Virus record (IMG/VR): IMGVR_UViG_2703718804_000008
DNA length: 22,259 nt
DNA from: a virus
Lineage: Duplodnaviria; Heunggongvirae; Uroviricota; Caudoviricetes
Strand: one strand, 5' to 3'
Shown here: positions 3,143 through 9,652 of the stretch, one piece after another
How the letters are laid out: each line of letters opens with the position of its first letter
Position numbering within the stretch: position 1 is the stretch's first letter
The notes under the pieces: model-generated
What the model was told of the DNA's origin: nothing
Databases searched by the model: none
The model's input: only the letters and a program-made list of their open reading frames with translations
Translations under genes and position numbers: made by a program

Positions 3143-3367
3143 ATGCATACAGTTTCTGAAAATCAGTGCGGTATATACGCATTACTGCTGCAACAGGCCA
3201 GAACCGAAGCACAGGCCGACGCTGCGACGCGCTTTTCTTCTCATCTTGACGCCATGATTCTCCACATCACAAAGGCGGAGTTATCCCGCGTGGAGATAGT
3301 CGAGCTGCTCAGTCAGGAGTCGGAAAAATTTCACAATATCGGATTGTCTCGCGGGGAGGTGCTTTGA
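3143..3367 (+). CDS. Hypothetical early protein (P2 orf80 position)
   Basis: 74 aa, ATG start with GGAGAAAG upstream; stop overlaps the next start. Confidence 0.6.
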
Positions 3368-3669
3368 TGTCCTGTTCTCGTTCAATTGTATTACTGAATA
3401 ACGCCTTAAAAATCGCCGTTATGGAAAATGGCGATTTGTCTCTTATTCAACTTGGTCTTGATAAAGAAAAGCGCGACATAACTGAATCTGTTATCGCGAT
3501 TTATCAGAGCGAATTAAACCTCCTGTCTGATGTGATCAATTTACTTGTGAAACGCGCTGTATTTCACAAGCAAATTTCCTCAGTGGATGAACTGACAAAA
3601 TTAACGACAGAACTCGCCAGCTATTGCGCTGATGAATTTAAGAAACTGAACGACAAAAGGAACTGGTAA
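3367..3669 (+). CDS. Hypothetical early protein (P2 orf81 position)
   Basis: The track ORF starts at TTG 3364; the first ATG is at 3367, overlapping the upstream TGA. 100 aa. Confidence 0.6.
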   Translation: MSCSRSIVLLNNALKIAVMENGDLSLIQLGLDKEKRDITESVIAIYQSELNLLSDVINLLVKRAVFHKQISSVDELTKLTTELASYCADEFKKLNDKRNW

Positions 3670-3893: not shown

Positions 3894-4165
3894 GTATTCG
3901 TATCGAAATTGGCGAACGTTATGTCGTTACCAGTGACAGCTTTCAGTTTATTCTCCACGAGAAAAAGAGAGCGGAAAGCGGTAAAAACGCCGGTCAGGAA
4001 TGGCTGTCGGTGGTTGGTTATTACCCGAAATTAAGCCAGCTCGTTTCCGGCCTGATGCATCACGATATTCTGACCGGAAGCGCAAAGTCTTTTGCTGATT
4101 TAAACGCGCAGGTTGAGCAACTCAGCAAGCGTTGTTCAGAGGCTTTTGGCTCATATGGCCGTTAA
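3890..4165 (+). CDS. Hypothetical early protein (P2 orf83 position)
   Basis: 91 aa, ATG start overlapping the upstream stop (ATGA). Confidence 0.55.
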   Translation: MSIRIEIGERYVVTSDSFQFILHEKKRAESGKNAGQEWLSVVGYYPKLSQLVSGLMHHDILTGSAKSFADLNAQVEQLSKRCSEAFGSYGR

Positions 4166-6149
4166 AGCCTCCGGGCGTTTTGTCCCTCCGTCAGCATTTG
4201 CCGCAGGCACCGGTAAGGCGTTTACCGGTGCTTATGCATGGAACGCGCCACGCGAGGCTGTCGGGCGCGAAAGACCCCTTACACGTGACGAGATGCGTCA
4301 GGTGCAAGGTGTTTTATCCACGATTAACCGCCTGCCTTACTTTTTGCGCTCGCTGTTTACTTCACGCTATGACTACATCCGGCGCAATAAAAGCCCGGTA
4401 CACGGGTTTTATTTCCTCACATCCACTTTTCAGCGTCGTTTATGGCCGCGCATTGAGCGTGTGAATCAGCGCCATGAAATGAACACCGACGCGTCGTTGC
4501 TGTTTCTGGCAGAGCGTGACCATTATGCGCGTCTGCCGGGGATGAATGACAAGGAGCTGAAAAAGTTTGCCGCCCGTATCTCATCGCAGCTTTTCATGAT
4601 GTATGAGGAACTCTGCGATGCCTGGGTGGATGCGCATGGCGAAAAAGAATCGCTGTTTACGGATGAGGCGCAGGCGCATCTGTATGGTCATGTTGCTGGC
4701 GCTGCACGTGCTTTCAATATTTCCCCGCTTTACTGGAAAAAATACCGTAAAGGGCAGATGACCACGAGGCAGGCATATTCTGCCATTGCCCGCCTGTTTA
4801 ACGATGAGTGGTGGACTCATCAGCTTAAAGGCCAGCGTATGCGCTGGCATGAGGCGTTACTGATTGCTGTCGGGGAGGTCAATAAAGACCGTTCTCCTTA
4901 TGCCAGTAAACATGCCATTCGTGATGTGCGTGCGCGCCGCCAGGCAAATCTGGAATTTCTTAAATCGTGTGACCTTGAAAACAAGGAAACCGGCGAGCGC
5001 ATCGACCTTATCAGTAAGGTGATGGGCAGTATTTCTAATCCAGAAATTCGCCGGATGGAGCTGATGAACACCATCGCCGGTATTGAGCGTTACGCCGCCG
5101 CAGAGGGTGATGTGGGGATGTTTATCACGCTGACCGCGCCGTCAAAGTATCACCCGACACGTCAGGTCAGAAAAGGCGAAAGTAAAACCGTCCAGCTAAA
5201 TCACGGCTGGAACGATGAGGCATTTAATCCAAAGGATGCGCAGCGTTATCTCTGCCGTATCTGGAGCCTGATGCGCACGGCATTCAAGGATAATGATTTA
5301 CAGGCCTACGGTTTGCGTGTTGTTGAACCACACCACGACGGAACGCCGCACTGGCATATGATGCTTTTTTGTAATCCACGCCAGCGTAACCAGATTATTG
5401 AAATCATGCGTCGCTATGCGCTCAAAGAGGATGGCGACGAAAGAGGAGCCGCGCGAAACCGTTTTCAGGCAAAACATCTTAACCGGGGCGGTGCTGCGGG
5501 GTATATCGCAAAATACATCTCAAAAAACATCGATGGCTATGCACTGGATGGTCAGCTCGATAATGATACCGGCAGGCCGCTGAAAGATACTGCTGCGGCT
5601 GTTACCGCATGGGCGTCAACGTGGCGAATTCCGCAATTTAAAACGATTGGCCTGCCGACAATGGGGGCTTACCGTGAACTACGCAAATTGCCTCGCGGCG
5701 TCAGTATTGCTGATGAGTTTGACGAACGCGTCGAGGCTGCTCGCGCTGCCGCAGACAGTGGTGATTTTGCGTTGTATATCAGCGCGCAGGGTGGGGCAAA
5801 TGTCCCGCGCGATTGTCAGACTGTCAGGGTTGCCCGTAGCCCGTCGGATGACGTTAACGAGTACGAGGAAGAAGTCGAGAGAGTGGTCGGCATTTACGCG
5901 CCGCATCTCGGCGCGCGTCATATTCATATCACCAGAACGACGGACTGGCGCATTGTTCCGAAAGTTCCGGTCGTTGAGCCTTTGACTTTAAAAAGCGGCA
6001 TCGCCGCGCCTCGGAGTCCTGTCAATAACTGTGGAAAGCTCACCGGTGGTGATACTTCGTTACCGGCTCCCACACCTTCTGAGCACGCCGCAGCAGTGCT
6101 TAATCTGGTTGATGACGGTGTTTCGAATGGAATGACCCGGAGGTTGTGA
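4155..6149 (+). CDS. A: Rolling-circle replication initiator (P2 gpA-like HUH endonuclease)
   Basis: HUH-type motif HHDGTPHWHMMLF and two-tyrosine motif GYIAKYISKN (phiX174 gpA-like YxxKY). The track ORF opens at TTG 4113; the first ATG is 4155 (664 aa). Start uncertain. Confidence 0.9.
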   Translation: MAVKASGRFVPPSAFAAGTGKAFTGAYAWNAPREAVGRERPLTRDEMRQVQGVLSTINRLPYFLRSLFTSRYDYIRRNKSPVHGFYFLTSTFQRRLWPRIERVNQRHEMNTDASLLFLAERDHYARLPGMNDKELKKFAARISSQLFMMYEELCDAWVDAHGEKESLFTDEAQAHLYGHVAGAARAFNISPLYWKKYRKGQMTTRQAYSAIARLFNDEWWTHQLKGQRMRWHEALLIAVGEVNKDRSPYASKHAIRDVRARRQANLEFLKSCDLENKETGERIDLISKVMGSISNPEIRRMELMNTIAGIERYAAAEGDVGMFITLTAPSKYHPTRQVRKGESKTVQLNHGWNDEAFNPKDAQRYLCRIWSLMRTAFKDNDLQAYGLRVVEPHHDGTPHWHMMLFCNPRQRNQIIEIMRRYALKEDGDERGAARNRFQAKHLNRGGAAGYIAKYISKNIDGYALDGQLDNDTGRPLKDTAAAVTAWASTWRIPQFKTIGLPTMGAYRELRKLPRGVSIADEFDERVEAARAAADSGDFALYISAQGGANVPRDCQTVRVARSPSDDVNEYEEEVERVVGIYAPHLGARHIHITRTTDWRIVPKVPVVEPLTLKSGIAAPRSPVNNCGKLTGGDTSLPAPTPSEHAAAVLNLVDDGVSNGMTRRL

Positions 6150-6433
6150 GGGCGCTCAGAAGCGCATTAAAACACGGCCTGAGAAGACCAAACCGTCAGC
6201 AAAGAAACGGAAGCCCCTTAAAACCACATGAAATTGCACCATCGGCCAGACTGACCCGGTCGGAAAGAATGCAAATCACCCGTATCCGCGTTGACCTTGC
6301 TCAGAACGGTATCAGGCCGCAGCGATGGGAGCTTGAGGTGCTGGCGCGTGGGGCAACGGTAAGCTATTGTGGGGAAAAATTTACGTATCCGGTCGCTGAT
6401 GAGGGGGCGGGATTTGTAGTATGTAAATGGTGA
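6146..6433 (+). CDS. Hypothetical protein, GTG start overlapping the A stop (P2 orf91 position?)
   Basis: 95-aa ORF starting with GTG in a GTGA overlap with the A stop codon; arginine-rich; same GC-rich composition as the backbone. No motif recognised. Confidence 0.4.
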   Translation: MRALRSALKHGLRRPNRQQRNGSPLKPHEIAPSARLTRSERMQITRIRVDLAQNGIRPQRWELEVLARGATVSYCGEKFTYPVADEGAGFVVCKW

Positions 6434-6683
6434 AGATAAGATGGGTTTTTGTCTGTAACGCATTGTTTTATATGGTTATATTTGATTTTTTGTAACGTGT
6501 GTTCATGTTTTCTTTGCTATGATTCATACTACTGCTATAGATGGCTAAAGATATAGGTTGTTGCTTAAATGTATATAGATAATTAAACGCCTTAATTTTT
6601 GATGAGATGTGTCATAAAGTGGAGTCTGTATGGCATAATTTTATGGGGCATGACATTTATACCATTCTTAAAAAGGAGATTAT
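6434..6683 (+). promoter_or_regulatory. AT-rich upstream region of the cargo cassette (probable own promoter plus RBS)
   Basis: 250 bp of very AT-rich non-coding DNA; AAGGAG at 6673-6678 five nt before the ATG at 6684; TGGCATAAT (extended -10-like) at 6631-6639. No convincing -35 found. Confidence 0.3.
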
Positions 6684-8351
6684 ATGCTGATAACTTTCTC
6701 AGGACAAAATTATAAGGCATACGAGAGTTTTAAGTTGTCTTTAAAGCCATTGACAATATTATTAGGGGCAAATAGTTGTGGGAAAAGTGCATTAATTAAC
6801 TCTTTGTTGATGTTTTCTCAGTCTGTTGATTCAATGTCATTGTCTGATTCTGCTTTAAGGTTGAATGGGCCTAAAGTTGGGATGGGAGAAGCATTAAATA
6901 TAATAAAAAATAAAGATGACTCCAAAACACTTAGTTTTAGTTTTGATTTTTCTGATAATACAGTGGTTAAAAATGGCATTGATACACTGAGGAGAGAAAC
7001 TTTAGAATCATTTGCTATGATTATGCGATTCACAGTGCAAACGGTGAAAAATAATGACGCTTTGGTTACGAAAGCCAATGATTTAATAAATGAGGCTTCG
7101 AATGCGATCGTTAACTTTGACGAATTTGAGGAAGCTGAGTTAAAGGTTATCGCTGATAAGTTATGTCAATTACTTTTGCTTTTTAGGGAGGCGGGTGATA
7201 ATATCACATTTAGTCGTGCGACCTCAGAAAATTTACGCAAATTTATATATGAATGTCCATTAAAGAGAATAAAGGATTGTCTAACTAAAGTTATTTCCAT
7301 TTCAGGAAATAAATTGTCGGCTTCTAAGATAAGCTATGATTTCAAATATGATAAAAATAAAGGGGTGATAAAAGTTTCGAGGCTTGTTCTTTTAAATAAG
7401 AATGATGAAAAGATAGTTGAGCTATTACCAAAGAAGAATAATGTCGTTGTATTATCAGATGTTATCCCTCAAGAAGTGTTTAGAGGATGTCAGTCAGATA
7501 TCTTAGAAATCATCAATCCTTATTCGCTGGGACTGTTCCCTGTCAATAATGGGCGTGGTTTTTATGTTTTTTTTGGTAACTCTTATAATCCTGTTGTTAA
7601 TTTTTTATCACATGTTGTTTCTTTGGGTGTATTAATGCTTTCAAAAATGTTTGATGGTGAAAATGTTAATCACGTCAGCCCATTGAGAGCATTTCCTCAG
7701 CGATATTATCTATTAGACAAAACAGTCAATCATGCGCAGTTAAATTCTGCCGATGGATCTGAGTTAGCGGAGATCTTGAAGAAAAATACAAAAATAACAG
7801 AAAATATAAATCTTCTTCTGGCTGAATTTAATTTGGCTGTTGATATAGTTAAAGTTAATGACATAATTCATAAAATTGTTATAAACCAAGATGCTGTTAA
7901 TTTAGAGTTGACAGATGTGGGGTTTGGAATATCACAAGTATTGCCTGTCTTGGTTCAAGCTTATTTGTCACCAAAGGGTTCGATTACAATAATAGAACAA
8001 CCAGAAATACATTTGCATCCTAAAATGCAGGCATGGTTAACGGACGCATTAATTAAAATATCCATGCAAGAAAAGAAAGTATTTATTATTGAAACCCATA
8101 GCGATGCTTTAGTTAGACGAATTAGATTAAGAATTGTTGATGAATCGAGTGAACTTACAGAGGATCATGTTGCAATCTACCATCTTGAGCGCGATGAAGA
8201 GGGAACATCAACATTGCTGAATAGGGTGGCTGTAAATTCTGATGGAGATATCACATGGCCAAATGAATTTATGGATGTTGAGATTCAGGATACAATTAGA
8301 ATACAGGAGTTAAAGATACAGAAAATAATGAACTCAAAGGGGGTTCATTGA
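6684..8351 (+). CDS. OLD/ABC-type ATPase (AAA_15/AAA_21-like), candidate defence-system sensor/motor
   Basis: 555 aa. Walker A GANSCGKS at residues 28-35; Walker B/D-loop IIEQPEIHLHP at ~436-446; H-loop FIIETHSD at ~465-472. About 400 aa separate Walker A and B. Very AT-rich. Confidence 0.85.
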   Translation: MLITFSGQNYKAYESFKLSLKPLTILLGANSCGKSALINSLLMFSQSVDSMSLSDSALRLNGPKVGMGEALNIIKNKDDSKTLSFSFDFSDNTVVKNGIDTLRRETLESFAMIMRFTVQTVKNNDALVTKANDLINEASNAIVNFDEFEEAELKVIADKLCQLLLLFREAGDNITFSRATSENLRKFIYECPLKRIKDCLTKVISISGNKLSASKISYDFKYDKNKGVIKVSRLVLLNKNDEKIVELLPKKNNVVVLSDVIPQEVFRGCQSDILEIINPYSLGLFPVNNGRGFYVFFGNSYNPVVNFLSHVVSLGVLMLSKMFDGENVNHVSPLRAFPQRYYLLDKTVNHAQLNSADGSELAEILKKNTKITENINLLLAEFNLAVDIVKVNDIIHKIVINQDAVNLELTDVGFGISQVLPVLVQAYLSPKGSITIIEQPEIHLHPKMQAWLTDALIKISMQEKKVFIIETHSDALVRRIRLRIVDESSELTEDHVAIYHLERDEEGTSTLLNRVAVNSDGDITWPNEFMDVEIQDTIRIQELKIQKIMNSKGVH

Positions 8352-8352
8352 C

Positions 8353-9354
8353 ATGTATTGTGCAGTGTGTTTGTGTCCTGATTTTGTTGCGGCTAATATT
8401 TCTGATATTAATTTATTTAGTGGTTTTTTTATTGGAACCATTGTTAATGGTGAAAATCAGTTGATTTTAGATGCTGATGAAAAAATCCGTTTGGGCTATT
8501 TGAAATCTTGTAAAAATAACAAGGATTCTTTTTATCTGCTTCAGAAATGGGAGGCTGAATTATCTAAAGCTTCTTCAGGTAAAATATTGCTTGCACCAGT
8601 GAGTAATAGTACTGATGATATTAAGGATATAGTTGTTTGTGCAGTTGCTAACGCAGCTACCACCTTTGATAAACATATTGTGGTATTAGACAATAATAGT
8701 TACTCTGGATATGTTGATGAATTAGTTAGGCAAAGAGTTAATTTGTTAAATCTTAATAGTATAAGTTTAATATCAAAGGAGGATAGGGTGCAGCGTCCTT
8801 TGAATTTTATAAAGTTTGATAGCGATTTGTCTTGGGTGCTTCAAAGACTGGGGCGACGCTCTGCTAAAGGATATGGCGAAGATGATTTTAATGATTTTAT
8901 ACGAGATATGTTATTAGCTAAAAATTATGAGGTAAAAGATCAAACTCGAGAAGGAGAGTCTCAATCGGGGAAAAAAGCCGGTGAGTTAGATCTTGTTATT
9001 GAAGATAGAGGAGAACTGTTTGCTATAATAGAAGCCTTGATTTTAAACTCTTTAGATCAAGCTAACATATTAAAGCATTATTCAAAGTTAATTGATAACT
9101 ATAATCCTATTCATGTCAAAAGGTTGTTTTTAATTGCTTATTATACAGGTGCAAAATTCGATGCCTGGTGTGAAAGATATATTGAGTATCTAAAGGGGAT
9201 TACTTCGGTAGATATTGGTGTGGAATCTCATCAGATAGTTGAGGTTAAAGAAGTGGATACCCCGTACATAGGCTTAAGAAAAATTGAACATCATTTTAGA
9301 TATGCGGGGGAGCACTATTTTTGTATCCATTATGCAGTCAAAATGGCTCGGTGA
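8353..9354 (+). CDS. Hypothetical partner protein of the ATPase (candidate effector)
   Basis: 333 aa; ATG one nt after the ATPase stop, so translationally coupled; same AT-rich composition. Segment ELDLVIEDRGELFAIIEAL is loosely PD-(D/E)xK-like but lacks the canonical Lys. No confident domain call. Confidence 0.75.
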   Translation: MYCAVCLCPDFVAANISDINLFSGFFIGTIVNGENQLILDADEKIRLGYLKSCKNNKDSFYLLQKWEAELSKASSGKILLAPVSNSTDDIKDIVVCAVANAATTFDKHIVVLDNNSYSGYVDELVRQRVNLLNLNSISLISKEDRVQRPLNFIKFDSDLSWVLQRLGRRSAKGYGEDDFNDFIRDMLLAKNYEVKDQTREGESQSGKKAGELDLVIEDRGELFAIIEALILNSLDQANILKHYSKLIDNYNPIHVKRLFLIAYYTGAKFDAWCERYIEYLKGITSVDIGVESHQIVEVKEVDTPYIGLRKIEHHFRYAGEHYFCIHYAVKMAR

Positions 9355-9366
9355 TGTTTAAGATGA

Positions 9367-9392
9367 ATGCACCTATAGGGTGCATCATTTTG
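9367..9392 (+). terminator. Putative intrinsic terminator of the cargo operon
   Basis: Hairpin ATGCACC-TATAG-GGTGCAT (7-bp stem) followed by CATTTTGCATGTTT, 13 nt after the partner gene stop. AT-rich stem, so weak. Confidence 0.35.
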
Positions 9393-9491
9393 CATGTTTA
9401 AATATGTTCTCTATGTATGTGCGCTAGGCTTGACTGGCGCGCTTATACTATGTTTACGCAACTGCATTAAAACTGACCCACGAAGCGGGCG

Positions 9492-9510
9492 GGCGAGGCG
9501 GGGAAAGCAC
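9492..9510. other. cos: cos site (19-nt cohesive-end sequence, P2-type)
   Basis: GGCGAGGCGGGGAAAGCAC matches my recollection of the P2 cohesive end; it lies between the early region and Q, as in P2. Confidence 0.55.
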
Positions 9511-9652
9511 TGCGCGCTGGCGGTGGTGCTGATTTTATTTTTTCAGCGTCTGAGCGCGTCGTGACGGCGTTTAGATTGTTCGCCGGGGCGTTGGTGTGTC
9601 TGCGGGATTTTTTGTGCGGTGATGAGCGTGTGAGGGCGTGATGACGGGGTGT

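Follow-up and report, generated by a model that had tools for sequence, protein, structure and literature searches.

The closest described systems to the gene pair analyzed here are HEC-03 and Menshen. HEC-03 consists of an ABC ATPase and a PIN protein, both of which the representative studied requires for defence, and its over-expression is toxic (Payne et al. 2024, 10.1101/2024.01.29.577857). The NsnB-NsnC pair of Menshen was described in Millman 2022 and Li et al. 2025 (PMC12065111); in AlphaFold 3 models of 23 of 24 Menshen systems, the inactive PIN domain of NsnC lies between two DUF3696 tails of the NsnB tetramer, and ATP binding or hydrolysis has been proposed to control the effector (PMC12065111). 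Here, we present a computational analysis of ORF555 and ORF333, two coupled genes of a P2-like prophage on a 22,259-nucleotide (nt) stretch of viral DNA (IMG/VR record IMGVR_UViG_2703718804_000008; hereafter, the window). An earlier note on this DNA had proposed the pair as an uncharacterised anti-phage system and had been unable to place it in a named family. We found that (i) ORF555 belongs to a clade of OLD-type ABC ATPases with an EQPE Walker B motif and a DUF3696-like tail that includes NsnB and the HEC-03 ATPase; (ii) ORF333 combines a PIN-like fold that has lost its active site with a PD-(D/E)XK nuclease fold that has a nearly invariant one; and (iii) based on PADLOC, fold, and profile comparisons, the pair can, contrary to that judgment, be placed beside Menshen NsnB/NsnC and HEC-03. 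In its mode of action, the pair would most resemble NsnBC, and it shares with HEC-03 a descent from ATPase-plus-PIN stock. We consider it likely that ORF555 and ORF333 together make up an anti-phage module, which belongs to the exchangeable cargo of the hotspot between gene A and cos, with an ATPase sensor and a PIN-adaptor/PD-(D/E)XK effector.

The ATPase clade of ORF555

The assignment of the first gene to the OLD/ABC-type ATPases is borne out by our searches. In Pfam, ORF555 matches AAA_15 (2e-23) and AAA_21 (9e-18). Its best match in PADLOC is Menshen NsnB (2.1e-52), followed by the model named HEC-03B (7.7e-42) and by PDC-M55A (4.5e-41), with AriA (1e-27) and GajA (2e-10) far behind NsnB; the best stretch for the HEC-03 ATPase model (PDLC04148), which comes second to NsnB, spans only amino acids (aa) 395-543. 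PADLOC-DB v2 (models PDLC04147 and PDLC04148) and Payne et al. 2024 use the subunit letters in opposite senses; "HEC-03B" of PADLOC detects the ATPases and "HEC-03A" the small PIN partners, whereas HEC-03A of the preprint is the ATPase.

In an alignment of 28 relatives with identities down to 41%, the nucleotide-binding motifs of ORF555 are strictly conserved (Table 1), and so is the H-loop residue H472. The Walker A lysine is K34, as had been claimed. With E438-Q439 invariant in the Walker B region, Q439 stands where the catalytic glutamate would be expected; an invariant Q at this position would point to a switch that is slow or driven by binding, and not to a motor. NsnB likewise has GxG in place of the SGG signature and EN in place of the DE dyad (Li et al. 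2025, PMC12065111). At the C terminus, 10 of the 28 aligned relatives match Pfam DUF3696 (best, 8e-6). The AlphaFold2 (AF2) model of ORF555 (predicted local distance difference test [pLDDT], 81.7; predicted TM-score [pTM], 0.82) contains only two strands and one helix (534-551) past the ATPase core, and the tail (aa 491-555) is 100% identical in aa sequence between two E. coli alleles despite a synonymous divergence (dS) of 0.52. Among solved structures, ORF555 comes closest in fold to GajA, the retron-Eco8 effector, PtuA, and Thermus OLD, at TM-scores of only 0.3-0.36, and Pfam detected no TOPRIM domain in ORF555.

Related loci were surveyed using the patterns DVGFGISQ and MQAWL[TA]DA as seeds. 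The survey covers 80 of 528 confirmed stretches, and the counts of partner types in it are not unbiased frequencies. The EQPE Walker B, which was not among the patterns that gathered the relatives, is common to all partner-type groups. Almost every surveyed ATPase locus has a tightly coupled downstream gene, while the upstream genes are not conserved and DUF262 is absent from the top families of the 42 upstream ORFs. Among the downstream partners outside the ORF333 family (n = 68), 29 match the PADLOC HEC-03 partner model and four match NsnC. The type of partner follows the similarity of the ATPases, with profile hidden Markov model (HMM) bit scores of 445-870, 350-431, and 144-200 in three groups.

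At three Pseudanabaena loci (L046:2931-7619, L052:2958-7293, and L057:2632-7307), a RAMP-superfamily protein of 645-674 aa (PF03787, E 1e-12 to 4e-17) precedes the ATPase relative, either 1-2 nt apart from it or overlapping it, and thus occupies the place that NsnA has in Menshen; the partners, downstream of the ATPase, have 208-326 aa, and that of L046 is weakly MIT_C/PLD-like.

ORF333 combines a degenerate PIN-like domain with a PD-(D/E)XK fold

The earlier note had found no motif in the partner that it could name. This still holds for the sequence libraries, whereas structure prediction and fold search, which the note had proposed, resolved two confident domains (mean pLDDT, 86), one PIN-like and one of the PD-(D/E)XK type. 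The PIN fold matches of the ORF333 model are led by the Chp1 PIN-like domain (score, 10.1), a Pyrococcus PIN protein (10.0), and SMG6 (9.1) and further include Nmd4, SMG5, and many VapCs; the PD-(D/E)XK fold matches comprise BstYI (8.3), OkrAI (8.3), BglII (8.2), BamHI (8.0), McrC (7.5), NucC (6.2), and HamA (5.8). At the sequence level, the only Pfam signal in ORF333 is a sub-threshold match to PDDEXK_4 (E 0.073, aa 179-251), the ORF333-family profile has no match among PDB sequences even at E 10, and comparison with the BFVD viral structures gave weak single-domain matches only. Full-length ORF333 proteins form a small family of 49 clusters, all of ~333 aa, from Enterobacterales and Pseudomonas.

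The PIN-like N-domain is connected to the HEC-03 partners in two steps. BLAST clustering groups the ORF333 family with single-domain partners of ~170 aa, mostly from Bacteroidota. In profile-profile comparisons, the ORF333 N-domain matches this ~170-aa group (95.1%, E 3e-8, 120 columns), which in turn matches the HEC-03-type partners (95.8%, E 8e-9, 124 columns); a direct hhalign comparison of the ORF333 N-domain with the cyanobacterial partners gave 1%, which is not significant. Among the HEC-03-type partners, the canonical PIN residues (D6-T7-N8, E53, D110/D113, and D134) are retained, with D6, N8, E53, D113, and D134 present in all 29. These residues are gone from the ~170-aa group and from ORF333, in which only a shared D40/Y49/W66 signature remains, and ORF333 has CICPxF where active PIN proteins have VDTNV. 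Of the features that define the PIN superfamily, i.e., the fold and four catalytic acids, the ORF333 N-domain thus lacks the acids. By analogy to NsnC, this degenerate domain is now probably a docking adaptor.

Two Chryseobacterium loci (L019:7682-8626 and L029:7685-8629) encode 315-aa partners that cluster by BLAST with the ORF333 family and the ~170-aa partners, and the L019 partner weakly matches the ORF333 N-domain profile (E 4e-4). These partners differ in their C-terminal half, for which neither Pfam nor PDB gave a match and which may represent another effector on the same adaptor.

The C-domain of ORF333 has the alpha-beta-beta-beta-alpha-beta core of the PD-(D/E)XK superfamily together with conserved acids and a lysine. 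A profile search of 1.84 billion representatives returned 1116 matches, 767 of them at E <=1e-10. Only a few dozen of the 1116 are full length; most align over ~140-331 alone, in proteins of 150-1691 aa. Fusions sampled from these matches join the C-domain to Roc-COR GTPases with leucine-rich repeats (LRRs), an nSTAND3 NTPase, a pentapeptide-repeat protein, and a Lamassu LmuA-like protein, and none of the 10 proteins scanned has a Pfam model on the C-domain at E <=0.001. Over 147 instances, E176, D196, Q197, G201, S203, G210, D213, E227, H242, K245, and Y250 are 97-99% conserved, giving the motif E...D-Q...D...E-x-[LMF]...H-x-x-K. From its domain architectures, many of which have no PIN domain, the C-domain appears to be a mobile immune effector.

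Comparison with HEC-03 reveals both shared and divergent features. The pair forms a two-gene operon in which the ABC ATPase gene comes ahead of its tightly coupled partner gene, as in the 29 HEC-03-type loci, and ORF555 matches the HEC-03 ATPase model, with which it shares the EQPE Walker B and DVGFGISQ. However, the HEC-03 partner is a single-domain PIN protein of ~165 aa with intact catalytic acids, while ORF333 has 333 aa, has lost the acids, carries an appended nuclease, and is unseen by the HEC-03 partner HMM; moreover, ORF555 is ~100 aa longer than its HEC-03 counterparts (555 versus mostly 435-485 aa). HEC-03 as defined is ruled out; ORF333 is no active PIN protein, and the partner model is silent.

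With regard to Menshen, ORF555 resembles NsnB in its AAA_15 match, its GxG signature, an amide in Walker B (EQ; EN in NsnB), and a candidate tail of the DUF3696 type, which Pfam recognises in relatives but not in ORF555 itself. Judged by its folds and by the loss of the PIN acids, ORF333 has the NsnC-like order of an inactive PIN-like N-domain and a C-terminal nuclease. In contrast, the PD-(D/E)XK effector falls outside the 15 listed C-terminal families of NsnC. NsnA (ParB-DUF262 plus ParBDB) was found neither in the cassette nor in the prophage annotation nor beside the pair in the related loci L003-L010. We therefore reject full membership in Menshen on three counts: NsnA is absent, the NsnC model has no match, and the effector is of none of the 15 families.

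In PARIS, Septu, Gabija, and P2 Old, too, an OLD-type ABC ATPase governs a nuclease, and PARIS and Old occupy the same genomic niche as the pair. PADLOC and Pfam detected no TOPRIM, HNH, or DUF4435 domain in ORF333. Accordingly, PARIS is rejected for want of DUF4435/TOPRIM (AriB) in ORF333, Septu for want of an HNH domain (PtuB) in ORF333, Gabija for want of a UvrD-helicase partner, and the OLD family proper (P2 Old, GajA) for want of a fused TOPRIM in ORF555. In comparison with the nucleases BamHI, BglII, BstYI, OkrAI, and McrC, the C-domain differs in that its sequence has no detectable similarity to any solved structure and in that its lysine apparently comes from the following helix.

Genetic setting, occurrence, and inheritance of the pair

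The two coupled plus-strand genes of the earlier note were recovered exactly (Table 1). The TGA stop codon of ORF555 (8349-8351) is separated from the ATG of ORF333 at 8353 by a 1-nt gap, and the genes are tightly coupled. In the P2-EC5 record, a ribosome-binding site (RBS) is annotated at the position equivalent to the AAGGAG of ORF555. The cassette is as AT-rich as had been noted, with a GC content of 0.32-0.37 over 6501-9500, of 0.51-0.57 in both flanks, and of 33% for the island. At 33.5% GC, the chance of so long an open frame is 3.5e-19 for ORF555 and 8.4e-12 for ORF333. Comparison with an E. coli allele of 89% identity shows purifying selection on both genes, with ratios of nonsynonymous to synonymous divergence (dN/dS) of 0.05 (ORF555) and 0.14 (ORF333).

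Table 1. Coordinates of the features of the cassette in the window
Feature	Position	Strand	Description
ORF555	6684..8351	+	555 aa, ATG start; OLD-type ABC ATPase (AAA_15/AAA_21), NsnB/HEC-03-ATPase clade
ORF333	8353..9354	+	333 aa, ATG start; two-domain protein, proposed effector; AF2 mean pLDDT 86
Walker A, G28-A-N-S-C-G-K34-S35	6765..6788	+	G28, N30, S31, G33, K34, and S35 invariant in 28 relatives
Signature-like D411-V-G-F-G-I-S-Q418	7914..7937	+	GxG form; invariant in the 28-relative alignment
Walker B region, I-T-I-I-E438-Q439-P-E-I-H-L-H-P	7983..8021	+	E438 and Q439 invariant
C-terminal tail of ORF555, aa 491-555	8154..8348	+	DUF3696-like; proposed partner docking site; helix 534-551 in model
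PIN-like N-domain of ORF333, aa 1-145	8353..8787	+	Catalytically degenerate; proposed adaptor
PD-(D/E)XK-fold nuclease domain of ORF333, aa 146-333	8788..9351	+	Proposed effector
AT-rich cargo island, ~3.0 kb	6434..9430		End of gene A to cos-proximal backbone; GC drop
Shine-Dalgarno AAGGAG	6673..6678	+	5 nt 5' of the ORF555 start; sequence inspection
G-rich RBS AAGGGGG for ORF333	8337..8343	+	Within the 3' end of ORF555; sequence inspection
Terminator-like hairpin (9367-9385) and T-rich tail	9367..9395	+	13 nt past the ORF333 stop; consensus scan, pattern match only

The gene order of the P2-like prophage, which lies near yegR/yegS, is integrase, C/cox, B, gene A, cassette, portal gene Q, terminase gene P, and capsid genes. 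Gene A, for the replication endonuclease, directly precedes the cassette. The sequence GGCGAGGCGGGGAAAGCAC, which we take to be the P2 cos, is found at 9492-9510, and on this basis the cassette lies between gene A and cos, in agreement with the location given to it before. Homology with most P2-like prophages resumes only at about 9429-9458 of the window. A 56-aa ORF at 9394-9564 overlaps the cos region and is probably no gene, because it spans the presumed cos. A DUF5405 gene (about 3364-3669) has an internal stop.

E. coli ARS-C301 (NZ_CP132983) contains the window at 100% identity. Among 5426 complete E. coli genomes, the flanking backbone is common to 2156, while the cassette occurs in six, two at >=99% identity and four at ~89%. 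An 88% variant from ECOR5 was deposited in GenBank as the fragment "P2-EC5 ORF555 and ORF333" (AM157364), which is the sole phage record with the ORF333 partner. The exact proteins of the window are P2-hotspot system 69, "AAA_15/AAA_21," with 62 occurrences (Rousset et al. 2022, Table S5B), and the 89% allele (WP_024249463 and WP_024249462) is in Table S5A of the same study. The literature searched under the accessions and ORF names contains no naming or characterisation of the pair, and the databases throughout use "AAA family ATPase" and "hypothetical protein." The pair had thus been seen before, as an unnamed entry in the catalogue of Rousset et al. 2022 and as the deposited P2-EC5 variant.

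The gene pair is strictly conserved across mobile contexts. The cassette and gene A are co-directional in the window and in strain E308; in P2-like prophages of Serratia, E. coli, and a metagenome, the two genes are adjacent and inverted relative to A and Q as compared with the window. In the Serratia prophage, the JGI prophage, and another E. coli prophage (among the loci L005, L006, L007, and L010), the cassette is co-directional with portal gene Q. The pair is also kept in an integrase/AlpA island of Pseudomonas veronii and on a Vibrio plasmid, where the identity of the partner is 26%. Between the window and strain E308, dS is 0.44-0.57 for the cassette and 0.08 for the adjacent portal gene, arguing that the alleles of the cassette predate the backbones in which they now lie. 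In a pair outside prophages on the chromosome of Enterobacter roggenkampii (L008:6502-7999), which adjoins an InsA zinc-ribbon (insertion sequence) fragment, the ATPase is cut to ~376-410 aa and the partner is intact; this copy is possibly inactivated.

Proposed function and competing explanations

Several lines of evidence argue that the pair is probably anti-phage: its location in the hotspot and its mobility; the similarity of the ATPase to defence ABC ATPases, both in sequence (NsnB, HEC-03, PDC-M55A) and among solved folds; the recurrence of the C-domain on Roc-COR-LRR, nSTAND3, and LmuA-like immune proteins; and the precedents of HEC-03 and Menshen NsnB-NsnC. The ATPase-plus-effector architecture recognised in the earlier note is the best-supported reading, and such an architecture is what a specialist expects at the P2 hotspot. 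Based on the comparison to NsnBC, we propose that ORF555 acts as sensor and regulator and that the N-domain of ORF333 docks on the ATPase oligomer via the conserved C-terminal DUF3696-like tails. As long as the ORF555 oligomer holds ORF333, the PD-(D/E)XK domain would be kept inactive. A phage cue may then shift the nucleotide state of the ATPase, and the nuclease would be released or activated to cut nucleic acid, most likely DNA. Infection would thereby be stopped, probably at the cost of the cell.

A number of observations weigh against this explanation. On the side of the effector, the classical ExK lysine is absent from the C-domain, position 229 being L, M, or F, and the active site would have to be a PD-(D/E)XK variant in which K245 is supplied from the helix after the third strand, a role that we infer from conservation. 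ORF333 has no match in PADLOC, PHROGs, or NCBIfam, including the HEC-03 PIN-partner and NsnC models, so that the PADLOC check called for in the earlier note recognised only the ATPase. The homology of its N-domain to the HEC-03 PIN protein is only transitive because the direct profile match to the HEC-03-type PIN partners is weak (hhalign, 23%, not significant). On the side of the ATPase, with Q439 at the catalytic-base position ATP may not be hydrolysed at all, and ORF555 of the window falls below the Pfam DUF3696 threshold; among the other Pfam models that had been suggested for the pair, AAA_15 and AAA_21 matched and DUF4435, HNH, and TOPRIM did not. As to expression, a consensus scan of the plus strand at 6434-6683 found no promoter (an extended -10-like TGGCATAAT at 6631-6639 is a candidate spotted by eye), and the prophage that hosts the pair appears to be defective, given that gene A is split into 4113-6149 and 6146-6433 and annotated in RefSeq as a frameshifted replication endonuclease, so that the pair may not be expressed in the strain that carries it. 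Finally, neither allele is in the tested-systems table of Rousset et al. 2022.

Alternatively, the pair could be an ATP-dependent, McrBC-like restriction system, in which the ATPase loads on or scans DNA and the PD-(D/E)XK domain cuts foreign DNA with neither abortion nor a protein trigger. We regard this as unlikely, since the cassette has no methyltransferase or recognisable DNA-recognition domain, the ATPase clade is one whose partners are effectors of the RNase type (PIN in HEC-03, BECR in Menshen), and Q439 argues against a processive motor. A toxin-antitoxin (TA)-like addiction module, in which the ATPase constitutively neutralises the ORF333 nuclease toxin and the role of the pair is maintenance of the prophage or island and not phage defence, would fit the tight coupling of the genes and their presence on mobile elements, the toxicity of induced HEC-03, and the description of Pfam AAA_21 as "putative AbiEii toxin, Type IV TA system." However, the related HEC-03 needs both genes for defence, defence cargo dominates the hotspot, and the fusion of the C-domain to STAND and Roc-COR sensors is an immune and not a TA architecture; we notice that TA behaviour and abortive defence can coexist, and we consider addiction without defence quite unlikely.

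The roles of the two ORF333 domains might also be reversed, with the PIN-like domain being a true RNase effector as in HEC-03 and the C-domain merely binding nucleic acid. While the transitive homology of the N-domain to the HEC-03 PIN protein and its invariant D40 speak for this idea, it is very unlikely given that D6, E53, D113, and D134 have no conserved counterparts and CICPxF replaces VDTNV, and that E176, D213, E227, and K245 are kept in >=97% of 147 C-domains, many of them PIN-less. A phage function outside defence, i.e., in replication, recombination, or packaging, would suit a cassette that adjoins gene A and cos; it is extremely unlikely for a cassette that only six of 5426 complete E. 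coli genomes carry, against 2156 with the flanking backbone, that is found in both orientations and in places other than prophages, and that has the P2-EC5 fragment as its sole phage record.

Returning to the anti-phage module as the preferred explanation, our analysis provides a family assignment and a mechanistic hypothesis for a recurrent, unnamed P2-hotspot cassette that PADLOC v2 half-recognises, i.e., the ATPase but not the partner. Beyond this, it delineates a nuclease domain of effectors that is widespread, with >1000 representative matches and no Pfam model among the proteins scanned, and whose active-site residues are directly mutable. The pair is small, is in E. coli, and comes in two natural alleles, which makes experiments on it easy to begin.

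The series of partners from active PIN to degenerate PIN to degenerate PIN plus nuclease suggests a docking platform of ATPase tail and PIN domain with swappable effectors, and it connects the validated two-gene HEC-03 with the three-gene Menshen. It is possible, although we put it at somewhat less than even, that an effector was converted into an adaptor within this ATPase clade, i.e., that an active PIN RNase of the HEC-03 type became an inactive universal docking domain onto which unrelated killing domains were grafted. Equally tentatively, these grafts would comprise the PD-(D/E)XK domain in ORF333, the unidentified domain in Chryseobacterium, and the BECR, Toprim, and PLD domains in Menshen. 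If this conversion took place, then HEC-03, the P2 pair, and Menshen NsnBC would be one modular platform, in which the ATPase alone would suffice to sense phages, with NsnA (or the RAMP protein in cyanobacteria) as an optional add-on sensor.

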